The notes under the pieces were generated by a model. It saw nothing but the letters and a program-made list of their open reading frames with translations. It had not been told where the DNA came from and did not search any database. A stretch of DNA of 64,000 nt from a virus. Its lineage: Duplodnaviria > Heunggongvirae > Uroviricota > Caudoviricetes. Each line of letters starts with the position of its first letter. Positions within the stretch are counted from its first letter, which is position 1. Below are positions 3,257 through 58,028 of this stretch, piece by piece. The translations under genes and the position numbers were made by a program. Where the stretch lies: positions 45,443-109,442 of the IMG/VR virus record IMGVR_UViG_2595698871_000001. One strand, given 5' to 3'.

Positions 3257-3698
3257 ACCTCGTGGTGAGGTGAGAACGCCCTCCTCATGCACCGCTTCGG
3301 CGGTAAAGTAGGCTCCAGCCGAAGAGATGCGGGACCAGGGGACCCCGCCACCACGAACGAAGTGCGCCCCAGGTACGCCTCTGACCGAGAAAGCCCGCTG
3401 GCCGTGGGTGAAGTGTATGGTCAAGCGTCTGGGTCCCCGTCCGCCAGGACCGGCGAAGGCCATATGCGCCGAATTCCTGGACCGGATCGTAGGAGGGGAG
3501 CGTTGGCGCCGGCCCAGCAGGGAAGGGTGAAGAGCCCAGCCGGCAATTTTCTTCAACAACAAGCTTGACAGCCGTCGAGTTTCGTGAGAGCCTCCTCAAC
3601 ATTATGACGCACCTCCTCACCCGTTACGAACGCGAGGCCACCGGCCTCGATACCACCACCGCCTAAAAGCGGTTTTGGTCCGAGGCCTCTTGTGATGT

Positions 3699-6950: not shown

Positions 6951-7024
6951 TGAGGGTTCGTCTAACGGTAGGACGCCTGGGTCTGGTCCAGGTAATCTAG
7001 GTTCGAGTCCTAGCCCCTCATCCA
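6951..7024 (+). tRNA. tRNA-Gln(CTG)
   Basis: CCTGG-GTCTGGT-CCAGG; U1-A72; CCA. Confidence 0.9.
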
Positions 7025-55282: not shown

Positions 55283-55973
55283 AGAGAAGCTCCGGTTTGG
55301 CGCTGACGGGCTTGGACCAGTCCCAGACGAACCACGCGTAGGCGAAGCGCGGTGCGCCCTTGGTCCCCTCGATCCAGCGGGGGCGATGGCGAAGGGTGAC
55401 CTTCGCGGCGAAGGCGGGGTGATCGAAGAGGTCGGCGCGCGAGCGCGCGGCGTCCCATTCGTGGCGGCAGAGGAAGGCGACGAAGCCCTTGTCGGCTTCC
55501 ATCAGCTTCAGGGCATGACGGGCGGCGCGCTCGGCGTCCTTGCCGTAAGGCGGATTGGAGATGATGGCGTCCGGGCGCGCCGGCAGCGGGGTGACCTTGC
55601 GCTCCTTGCCCTCGTCGTCGAGGACCACCGCCGGCCGGGCCTTCAGCGCGCCCAGGCGATCCAGGTCGTCCGGGGTGAGCTTGAAGAAGTCCTCGACCGC
55701 GTCCACGTCGAAGCCTTCGTAGCGACGGATGTCCGTGGAAAGGACCTCCTGCACGTAGGGCCGCAGCGGGTTGGCGATCGCGCCGTTGCCCGCGAAGGGC
55801 TCCCAGGCATAGAAGCCGGCGAACTCGTCGCCCATGGCCTCGATCAGCGCGTCGAACGCGGGACGAGGCGTCGGATAGAAATCCAAGGGGTTCCTGGCAT
55901 AGCCCGAGGCGCCCAGCATGGAGGGGTCTTTGCGACCGGCATCGGAGAGAGACATGGCCAGGAGGGATGTCAT
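55272..55973 (-). CDS. Amino (N6-A/N4-C) DNA methyltransferase-like protein
   Basis: DFYPTP, WEPFAGNG, IISNPPY. Confidence 0.78.
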   Translation of the reverse strand: MTSLLAMSLSDAGRKDPSMLGASGYARNPLDFYPTPRPAFDALIEAMGDEFAGFYAWEPFAGNGAIANPLRPYVQEVLSTDIRRYEGFDVDAVEDFFKLTPDDLDRLGALKARPAVVLDDEGKERKVTPLPARPDAIISNPPYGKDAERAARHALKLMEADKGFVAFLCRHEWDAARSRADLFDHPAFAAKVTLRHRPRWIEGTKGAPRFAYAWFVWDWSKPVSAKPELLYAG

Positions 55974-56032
55974 GGTTAACGAAGGGTGTCAAGATTCACG
56001 ACATTGACTGTCGTGACGCACCACGCTACACA
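55964..56032. promoter_or_regulatory. Back-to-back promoters
   Basis: Minus: TGTCGTGAATC-TTGACA with TTAACCAT in spacer; plus: TTGACT-N17-TACACA (56004-56032). Confidence 0.7.
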
Positions 56033-56038
56033 CCCTCG

Positions 56039-56722
56039 ACGAGGCGGTCTCCTGCTCCTAGCGCGCGCTCTCCAGCCTTTCCGAGGGCGATGCGCCGGAC
56101 CTGCTGAGCAAGGGAATCCAGAGCGAGGCAGCGCTCTGCTCCCCAAAGAGTGGGCCAAGCGGTGCGGGCGGAAAGGCTCGGGGTCCGTGGCTCCATGCAA
56201 TGCGCAGGAGAGACCGTGCTCCTTCTGACGCAGCGGGCGCCCGACGTTGCGGGTCGTGAGGCGAGGCCGGCCGAGATGATCAACGGCCTGGGGCGGGAGG
56301 GGCTTGACCTCTCCCGCATCCGCCTCTAGCGTCACCATCAATCAGGCGCAGCACTGCCTCACGATCGGACCATGTTCGGCTCCCGGTCCTGGAGCTTGGA
56401 AGCCTCACTCTGGAGCAGGACTGCCGCTGCGCCGGGGACGGTTTGGACGACGCACCCGTCCATGAGGCGAACGCCGGCCAAGACATGGCACGAGGCGTGA
56501 CGGGGACCAGAGGTCCCACTCCATTCGCCGCGCCGGCGGCAGCAAAGCTCATTGAGCGGATGGTGGCACGGGCGCGAGCCCGATTTTGAGAGCCAGCGGA
56601 GAGCCACCTTCCTCCCTGGCCCGGCGACGACGAAAGCTGGGTGGCTGTAACCGCTCGTCTGAGGGATGCGTCCCCAAGATCATCAAGACGCAAAAGGCCC
56701 CGATCTCGCGATCGGGGCCTTT
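56039..56722 (+). ncRNA. Candidate large structured ncRNA (~650-680 nt)
   Basis: Own promoter and terminator, no credible ORF, many nested 6-11 bp helices. Confidence 0.6.
56693..56722. terminator. Bidirectional intrinsic terminator
   Basis: AAAGGCCCCGATC-TCGC-GATCGGGGCCTTT. Confidence 0.85.
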
Positions 56723-56729
56723 CAAATTC

Positions 56730-56818
56730 TGGAGCTACGGGAGGGACTCGAACCCTCATAGGTGTCGCCACCAGCAGAGATTTGCAGTCCCGCGCCTAAC
56801 CTCTCGGACCACCGTAGC
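56730..56818 (-). tRNA. tRNA-Cys(GCA) with long variable arm
   Basis: GCTACGG/CCGTAGC; loop CTGCAAA; variable arm GGTG-GCGA-CACC; U73; CCA. Confidence 0.85.
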
Positions 56819-57099: not shown

Positions 57100-57465
57100 G
57101 CATCGTTGTAATTCGGACAACGGAAACGGCGGCAAGACGGGGGTGCGATTCCCCCCGCCTCCACCACCACGAGCCCCTGGCGCTGGGAGTACGCGACTCC
57201 TGGGCAGGGAGTGTTACCCTGGCGGACCATTGCTGGCCCGAGCCAAAGGTAGCCGGGGGTTCTTGATGCTGGGGGCGATCAGCTTCGATTGGCGCATGTG
57301 ACTGGAAGACGCAACGGTGGGTGACCTCCAGGCCAGCTTGCTGGTGATCGGGTCGAAGCAACAGAAATGTCGCTGCAAATGACAACGCTCCGTTCGCGGT
57401 GCGTGAAGCCATCGCCGCCTAATAAGCGGTAGAGGCGTGTCCCGGCGGACGCGCGTGTCACAAAA
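57100..57465 (+). ncRNA. ssrA: Circularly permuted two-piece tmRNA (outer ends approximate)
   Basis: T-arm plus CGCCTCC-A-CCA ending 57166; GGGGGCG at 57271 giving G3.U70; tag ANDNAPFAVREAIAA at 57375-57422. Confidence 0.92.
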
Positions 57466-57604: not shown

Positions 57605-57683
57605 CGCGGGGTAGAGGAGTCCGGTTGTCCTCGTCTGGCTCATAACCAGAAGATCAGGGGTTCAAATCCCCTTCCCGCTCCCA
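57605..57683 (+). tRNA. tRNA-Met(CAT), initiator-like
   Basis: CGCGGGG start with C1:U72 mismatch; TCTGG-CTCATAA-CCAGA; CCA. Confidence 0.8.
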
Positions 57684-57941
57684 GGACCTGAACGCCGAGG
57701 GACTCCCAAAGAACGACGGCGTGACACGCTCGGAGAGAACGAGCACTGCAATCCGGGCTATGAGACCGTGATGTAGCGGACGCCGAAGCGAGAGCAGGCG
57801 TGACACCTGGAGAGACGGGACCAGTTTTCCAGGCCGCATGCCCGGCGCACAAGACCGCAGGCTTCGGCCGTAGGGCAGTGTCAGGGGATGAGGCTAGTCC
57901 CCGGCCCAAGGGCTAGGGCATGCGGCTTGGAAAGCTGGTTT

Positions 57942-58028
57942 GGTACGGTGGCTCGACAGGTAAGGCATCGGCCTCATAAGCCGAGGGACTAGCTCCCGAT
58001 CCTGGTTCAAATCCAGGTCGTACCTCCA
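57942..58028 (+). tRNA. tRNA(CAT), Met or Ile2, with long variable arm
   Basis: TCGGC-CTCATAA-GCCGA; variable arm GGGA-CTAGC-TCCC; CCA. Confidence 0.8.

Follow-up and report, generated by a model that had tools for sequence, protein, structure and literature searches.

The DNA analysed here, referred to as the window, is a 64,000-nucleotide stretch of the genome of phage CcrRogue (Rogue) or a near twin of it. The region 56039-56722 belongs to the second RNA island of this phage, where tRNA-Cys, a permuted tmRNA and two tRNA-Met genes were identified by ARAGORN and Rfam (Table 1); the preliminary description correctly placed it beside tRNA and tmRNA genes. It is a conserved, structured, non-coding RNA locus without a match in Rfam. 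Its sequence is 92.9% identical to that of Caulobacter phage CcrBL10 (BL10) and about 68% identical to those of phiCbK, Karma, Magneto, Swift and Ccr phages. BLAST searches with the whole unit yielded matches in 24 phage records, all of them from Caulobacter or Brevundimonas Dolichocephalovirinae. A BLASTN comparison across the phiCbK-like phages showed the region to be conserved in every one of them, together with the stretch of about 2.1 kb that holds it. The paper describing the phiCbK genome does not discuss the region.

The region had been described as devoid of open reading frames of phage codon style. This holds, since frame bias is absent from the codon-position GC plot between approximately 55975 and 58080, GC is flat over the codon positions of the ORFs annotated here, and only two of the 19 indels between Rogue and phiCbK are multiples of three, the reading frames being broken. 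The real genes flanking the region have GC3 of 0.88-0.96. It had also been suggested that the RNA might represent a new class. In agreement with this, cmscan matched 56039-56690 to no Rfam family either at the gathering score or at E<=10, and the same two thresholds applied to the window, a 1.6-kb segment, an 86-nt core and four related loci gave no family for the region; only terminator-like fragments scored. ARAGORN found no tRNA-like element within 56039-56722.

Table 1. Features of the locus, the rest of the window and related sequences. Numbers without a prefix are window positions; the prefix L marks sequences of relatives.
Feature	Position	Strand	Remarks
Promoter P1 (predicted), TTGACT-N17-TACACA	56004-56032	+	predicted start near 56039-56041
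Module A	56039-56317	+	variable structured body and weak motif copy
Motif copy A	56249-56317	+	flank GUGAGGCG; stem P1 56264-68/56285-89; HP2 56293-302/56308-17
Internal promoter P2 (predicted), CTTGAC-N17-TAGCGT	56303-56332	+	predicted start near 56339-56341
Module B	56340-56520	+	conserved RNA of about 180 nt ending in the canonical motif
Canonical motif copy B	56455-56526	+	stem P1 56471-75/56494-98; loop GGCCAAGA...ACGA; HP2 56503-08/56512-17
Module C	56521-56722	+	conserved tail; hairpin 56569-73/56578-82; possible degenerate motif at end
Tentative motif copy C	56652-56728	+	stem P1 56668-72/56687-91; second hairpin is the terminator
Putative intrinsic terminator hairpin	56693-56722		GC stem of 10-13 bp, 98.6% paired in seven phages
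tRNA-Cys	56730-56818	-	ARAGORN / Rfam; long-arm, 87-89 nt
Permuted tmRNA	57104-57422		ARAGORN / Rfam
tRNA-Met, two genes	57605-57683 and 57942-58028		ARAGORN / Rfam
Two short motif copies	57676-57750, 57764-57828	+	14.7 and 14.5 bits with model R1, E ~0.03
CTTGAC-N16-18-TAnnnT sites	2647, 6170, 7992, 11643, 35230, 41581-, 56303, 60835		-10 element often TAGCTT-like
Skipping-rope RNA (Rfam RF02924)	3260-3356	+	45.8 bits; gathering score 36.7
Motif copies abutting tRNA-Cys	L008:2493-2565; L032:4967-5039; L034:377-448		tRNA at 2563, 5033 and 446, respectively
Motif copy abutting tRNA-Met	L032:6931-6995		tRNA at 6997
tRNA-Cys in the opposite orientation	L008:2563-2647	+	compare window 56730-56818 (-)
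Ro60 (TROVE+vWA) genes	L007:1-2000; L045; L067:3856-5241		Gurke; CcrPW; Marchewka
Annotated hypothetical proteins	L001:1589-2161, L002:1581-2162, L004:1609-2121, L005:1609-2199	-	without codon bias; phiCbK gp290, Karma gp130, Magneto gp126, Ccr10 gp126c

Predicted promoters and terminator and proposed modules of the locus

The promoter proposed earlier upstream of the region (promoter P1) is present and conserved: its -35 element and the block upstream of it are identical in seven phages, and the -10 element varies as TA-A-A. Its score is under the threshold of a generic sigma-70 scan; we infer that it is active. The 57-bp block 55960-56016, identical in the seven phages, spans the methyltransferase start codon and promoter P1. 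Within this block a perfect 8-bp inverted repeat (TCACGACA / TGTCGTGA) surrounds the -35 element, and on this ground the repeat may be an operator.

Two features absent from the preliminary description are the repeated motif considered below and an internal predicted promoter (promoter P2), whose -35 element falls within the HP2 loop of motif copy A. All seven phages keep its 17-nt spacing and the pattern TAnnnT (TAGCGT, TAAGCT or TATCAT). Sites of the form CTTGAC-N16-18-TAnnnT occur eight times in the window compared with 0.22 expected, and look like the main promoter class of the phage; two of them precede tRNA genes of the first cluster by a few hundred bases. The site at 56303-56332 agrees with this class in hexamers, spacing and conservation, so the unit has at least two likely start points.

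The GC-rich hairpin proposed as the terminator is likewise present and conserved, with a U-tract of just three U on the plus strand, which is below the scan rule of five T in eight bases. On the minus strand, after tRNA-Cys, the stem is followed by UUUU. In the Karma record a rho-independent terminator is annotated at the homologous position. Since the U-tract is short on the plus strand and longer on the minus strand, the terminator is probably bidirectional and also ends the minus-strand tRNA-Cys transcript.

The 684-nt plus strand folds with -347 kcal/mol and a z-score of -5.35 relative to dinucleotide shuffles, as compared with -3.10 for the minus strand; the RNA thus folds better than shuffled controls, as a structured transcript was expected to. 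The better plus-strand z-score and the many G-U pairs favour the plus strand. Eight local helices are 94.3% paired in seven phages, against 35-44% in slid controls, and contain ten compensatory pairs, so that several helices of the locus are supported by covariation.

The seven helices noted earlier by eye fared unequally. All are complementary in the window, but four are limited to Rogue or to Rogue and BL10: 56045-55/56204-16, 56554-59/56651-56 and 56602-08/56640-46 occur in these two phages only, and 56252-62/56356-66 in Rogue only, so none of them is a general feature. Two others, 56119-25/56132-38 and 56293-302/56308-17, are about 92% paired in seven phages and show compensatory changes. 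The remaining helix, 56074-82/56170-78, is kept in all lineages, each of which builds it from a sequence of its own; it is only 65% paired on the MAFFT alignment, and its duplex z-score outside Rogue and BL10 is a modest -0.6 to -1.5. Variable parts are blurred in the MAFFT alignments, and the full unit is represented by no more than about four independent lineages.

The organization of the locus suggests a tandem of two or three RNA modules (A, B and C in Table 1) rather than one giant RNA. In the variable body of module A the hairpin 56119-25/56132-38 carries two compensatory pairs and is 92% paired; the hairpins of module C are 97-100% paired. Module B contains two boxes, CGCAGCACYGC (56347-56357) and GGACUGC (56418-56424), which are invariant from Rogue to phage CcrPW and the environmental viral contig L032. 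In both of the latter the orthologue of module B is the unit directly upstream of tRNA-Cys and has a promoter at the matching distance. A full secondary structure of module B is not proposed, because the MFE folds disagree across eight phages and RNAalifold on the MAFFT alignment retained invariant pairs only. A complementarity search of the window for antisense targets of the conserved loop and of the 5' box of module B gave nothing interpretable. Since motif copy A scores weakly and copy C falls short of significance, the number of modules may really be two and not three.

The repeated motif and its distribution

In BLAST, the distant Brevundimonas jumbo phages and CcrPW matched the 58-nt core at 56463-56520 with about 90% identity, and a profile search located this core four times in one intergenic region of CcrPW. 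A covariance model (R1) was built from 16 clear copies, copy A not being among them. With this model copy B scored 75.8 bits, and copy A was matched at 56249-56313 with 20.4 bits (E 7.7e-4 in the 64-kb window). Stem P1 of copy A has two compensatory pairs between Rogue and BL10; its HP2 is about 92-93% paired in seven phages with G-U pairs included, and these G-U pairs point to the plus strand. Copy C reached only 5.3 bits (E 0.8) with model R2 and its assignment is therefore tentative; by eye it is similar to a terminator-type copy in phage Gurke (L007:2739-2816). Two short copies lie outside the region originally described, between the two tRNA-Met genes, and have orthologues in BL10, CcrPW, Colossus and L032. 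R1 gave no copies in the 224-kb genome beyond those at 56455, 56249, 57676 and 57764.

The motif consists of a UGAGG-type flank, the 5-bp stem P1, a loop starting with GGCC(G/A)AGA, a short purine linker and the hairpin HP2. In 34 copies stem P1 is 99.4% paired (33-45% in slid controls) and occurs as ACGCC/GGCGU, AGGCC/GGCCU, ACGUC/GACGU and AAGCC/GGCUU; compensatory changes are found at three of its five pairs and at all five pairs of HP2. Among the unpaired positions, approximately 25 hardly vary between genera. A pseudoknot of 2-3 bp between the flank and the loop is possible but thinly supported: one pair is G-C in 31 of 31 copies, the other is C-G in 27, G-C in three and U-G in one, and the pairs vary in only two lineages.

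Relatives carry two to seven copies each (CcrPW 4-5, Colossus 3-4, Gurke and Kikimora 3, Marchewka 3-4, L032 7), all on the strand of the island. BLAST matches to the core were obtained in 32 phage records, again exclusively from Caulobacter or Brevundimonas Dolichocephalovirinae, and the regions under them are annotated as nothing or as 'hypothetical protein'. Scans of viral, metagenome and genome collections with a degenerate core pattern revealed true copies only in phiCbK-like phages, L032 and the metagenome contig L052. Bacterial matches of these scans were discarded, as they scored only over the bases forced by the pattern. With strict filters R1 was not found in 151 sampled alphaproteobacterial genomes, which is to be read as 'not found' and not as 'absent'. 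A protein search with the methyltransferase for more relatives returned only the known phages and distant matches.

In CcrPW, Colossus and the environmental relative, copies of the motif lie between the independent units, small genes and tRNAs. The HP2 of the fourth CcrPW copy ends 6 nt before tRNA-Cys, and the same junction is seen in Colossus; in L032 the distance from HP2 to tRNA-Cys is 2 nt. At a second junction in L032, only 2 nt lie between the end of the copy and tRNA-Met, and about 10 nt between its HP2 and this gene. Still other copies precede a tRNA or a small ORF that has a ribosome-binding site. The tRNA-Cys gene is inverted in the Rogue/phiCbK/BL57 group as compared with CcrPW, Colossus, Gurke and L032. 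The third copy of Colossus has a loop like that of CcrPW copy 3, and its HP2 and tRNA junction are those of CcrPW copy 4; the CcrPW gene gp415 and the next RNA unit are missing from Colossus (L034:377-448 versus L008:1625-1696 and L008:2493-2565). The hybrid copy and the missing gene and unit imply a recombination joint inside the motif.

Interpretation and alternative explanations

The explanation we prefer is that two or three non-coding RNA modules in tandem form part of the tRNA-Cys/tmRNA/tRNA-Met island. Host RNA polymerase would start at promoter P1 (about 56039) and at promoter P2 (about 56340) and would stop at the shared terminator at 56722. Each module would comprise a structured body that varies between lineages, followed by the conserved 3' element of about 60 nt. 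As this element is located 2-10 nt before a tRNA in CcrPW, Colossus and the environmental relative, RNase P cleavage of the tRNA precursor would leave it as the 3' end of the leader, and a leader RNA ending in the motif would be released. By parsimony, module B of the Rogue/phiCbK/BL57 group may once have been a tRNA leader; its retention despite the inversion of tRNA-Cys suggests that it now functions as an independent RNA. Judged from its position alone, the motif would act as a 3' cap that fixes and protects the RNA ends, and probably also as a protein handle. The transcription, processing and stability of these RNAs, and any binding partner, are likewise inferred. We give this account, with its tandem modules, conserved 3' element, dual promoters, shared terminator and cap role, an even chance of being right. 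A cis-regulatory role would fit too, as some copies in L032 and CcrPW are just upstream of small ORFs.

A bolder version is doubtful in our opinion. In it the motif would be dedicated to recognition or processing: either a specific RNA-binding protein (a host factor or the phage's Ro60) would use it as a handle, or it would be a small self-cleaving RNA of a new kind. The tRNA-tmRNA island of Caulobacter and Brevundimonas jumbo phages would then be a production line for a variable set of 'cargo' RNAs that share the same 3' end.

The preliminary description regarded the locus as one large functional RNA of about 650 nt. What stands is a conserved, structured, non-coding locus without an Rfam match; the single molecule is not supported, because the joining helix is not conserved, promoter P2 lies inside, and the modules each end in a motif. 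A structured RNA of about 680 nt in the manner of GOLLD and ROOL, with the motifs as internal domains and promoter P2 as a secondary one, would agree with the z-score of the full-length plus strand (-5.35), with the location next to phage tRNAs, where many GOLLD and ROOL genes are also found, and with promoter P1 and the only clear terminator bracketing the stretch. Moreover, as the canonical copies lack a U-tract, transcription from promoter P1 may run through all modules and give a single RNA of about 680 nt. However, the only proposed link between modules, 56252-62/56356-66, is missing even in BL10, which is 93% identical, and the long-range pairs given by RNAalifold are mostly invariant or changed on one side only. 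Further, no Rfam match of any kind was obtained, the class of promoter P2 is strongly non-random, and in relatives the modules are separate, differ in number and are interrupted by genes or tRNAs. We consider such an RNA unlikely.

We are also sceptical that the motif is mainly a regulatory or recombination cassette, an insulator plus promoter of the PeSL type, with bodies of little function of their own. A (C)TTGAC promoter does come right after copy A of the window, CcrPW copies 1 and 2, Gurke copy b and the copy in L052 (CTTGAC), as does ATTGAC after L032 copy 3. Inserts of several kinds (RNA-like stretches, small ORFs, tRNAs) lie between the copies, and the joint in the hybrid Colossus copy, formed from CcrPW copies 3 and 4, is inside the motif. 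Against this, the nearly invariant unpaired positions, about 25 in number, exceed what a terminator or insulator needs, some copies stand directly before tRNAs with no promoter after them, and the boxes in the body of module B are invariant across distant phages.

Another possibility is that the motif is the binding site of Ro60 (Rsr) and that the modules are tethers similar to Y RNAs, with a constant handle and a variable effector. The string GNCGAAN0-1G has been tied to Rsr binding (Chen et al. 2014, PMC4201824), and this string or a CGAA motif in the Ro60-binding stem is taken as a mark of Y RNAs (PMC4201824, PMC12135203). The sequence GGCGAACG of the canonical copy (56464-56471) fits GNCGAAN0-1G in the context of a bulged helix. 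It is found in copies of Rogue, BL10, BL57-like phages and Gurke, whereas most others have CGCGAACG; the string is short and may occur by chance, and many copies have C, not G, at the first position of the Rsr motif. In Gurke, Kikimora and Marchewka a Ro60 gene with TROVE and vWA domains directly precedes the array and is encoded on its strand, and Ro60 is encoded by CcrPW and Colossus too, but there it is about 25 kb away from the array. Such a same-strand neighbour was seen only in the three former phages. The genomes of Rogue, BL10, phiCbK and BL57 have no Ro60/TROVE homologue and yet keep the motif nearly unchanged. In 55 viral contigs, the Ro60 loci of CcrPW and Colossus included, the motif was not found at a distance of 4 kb or less from Ro60, and the elements that do accompany Ro60 genes in Gurke and CcrPW are sub-threshold YrlA-like ones with different sequences. 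On these grounds the link to Ro60 was mostly rejected, and we assign it a small probability.

Some observations were made in passing on Ro60 in these phages. It is encoded by Colossus-type and Brevundimonas jumbo phages. The YrlA-like elements of Gurke and CcrPW are located just upstream of it on the same strand, and one of those in Gurke overlaps what is annotated as a 'tRNA-Ser' gene of 75 nt.

It is very improbable that the motif is a small RNA with catalytic or ligand-sensing activity, be it a new self-cleaving ribozyme, by which polycistronic RNA/tRNA precursors would be cut into units, or a riboswitch-like sensor. Short covarying helices, numerous unpaired nucleotides that do not vary and a possible H-type pseudoknot would suit such an RNA, as would the multiple copies at unit boundaries beside tRNAs, some of them just upstream of ribosome-binding sites. 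The motif, however, resembles no ribozyme or riboswitch family of Rfam, and the pseudoknot comprises 2-3 pairs, which change in two lineages only. What follows the motif copies (a promoter, a tRNA, a terminator or one of several unrelated small ORFs) belongs to no consistent gene class, and this lack of a common theme downstream disfavours a riboswitch. A hammerhead-like string does not fit, by eye, the hammerhead core. Hammerhead, twister, HDV-like, guanidine-III, ZTP and SRP-like RNAs were all dropped, as their core strings did not fit by eye and there was no support from Rfam.

Finally, we give almost no credence to a protein encoded on the minus strand, although ORFs of 170-196 aa are annotated there in phiCbK (gp290), Karma, Magneto and Ccr10: their GC1/2/3 is flat (about 0.59-0.73) compared with 0.68/0.48/0.90 in neighbouring genes, their starts and lengths vary among phages, BL10 has no annotated ORF and BL57 just one of 42 aa on the opposite strand, the longest minus-strand ORF of the window extends into tRNA-Cys, and the Rogue/phiCbK indels are mostly not multiples of three. 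The gp290 family lacks both codon-position GC bias and frame-preserving indels; annotations of this type over the RNA locus are probably spurious and not genes, and 'hypothetical protein' calls could be corrected in at least nine phage records.

In the tandem-module explanation that we retain, the large-phage subfamily infecting Caulobacter and Brevundimonas keeps extra structured RNAs in its tRNA island; such islands of phages are commonly treated as simple tRNA lists. Recombination at the motif is seen reshaping the island. The motif of 60-75 nt, suitable for biochemistry, and module B of about 180 nt, suitable for genetics, offer a testable new RNA family in a tractable model host. If the motif is a protein handle or a processing element, these phages would make non-tRNA RNAs by means of the tRNA maturation machinery.

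Comparison with known systems

GOLLD and ROOL are structured RNAs without ORFs, often located beside tRNAs in phages or prophages, and we know of no established biochemical function for either. The locus differs from them in having no cmscan match even at E<=10, a modular organization, an internal promoter and no conserved joining helix.

In the tRNA cluster of phage T4, stable non-tRNA RNAs (species 1 and 2, RNA C and D) are co-transcribed with the tRNAs and released by tRNA-processing enzymes. To our knowledge, they have no assigned function, and we know of no repeated 3' motif of about 60 nt in T4.

The PeSL (promoter-early stem-loop) cassettes of T4-type phages consist of a repeated stem-loop with a promoter and flank variable inserts. 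Both PeSL and the motif array bear evidence of recombination between copies. In contrast to PeSL, the motif has many invariant unpaired bases, occurs in copies without a promoter and abuts the 5' ends of tRNAs.

The Y RNAs of bacteria and phages (YrlA, RF02553, and YrlB-type) share with the locus the combination of a constant handle and a variable part; YrlA, with its tRNA-like T and D arms, gave no match in the region of the window.

Skipping-rope RNA (RF02924), which directly follows tRNA-Gly in the first tRNA cluster of Rogue, is also a small structured RNA situated in a tRNA cluster of this phage. It is a closed junction of three hairpins and shows no cross-match to the motif of about 60 nt.
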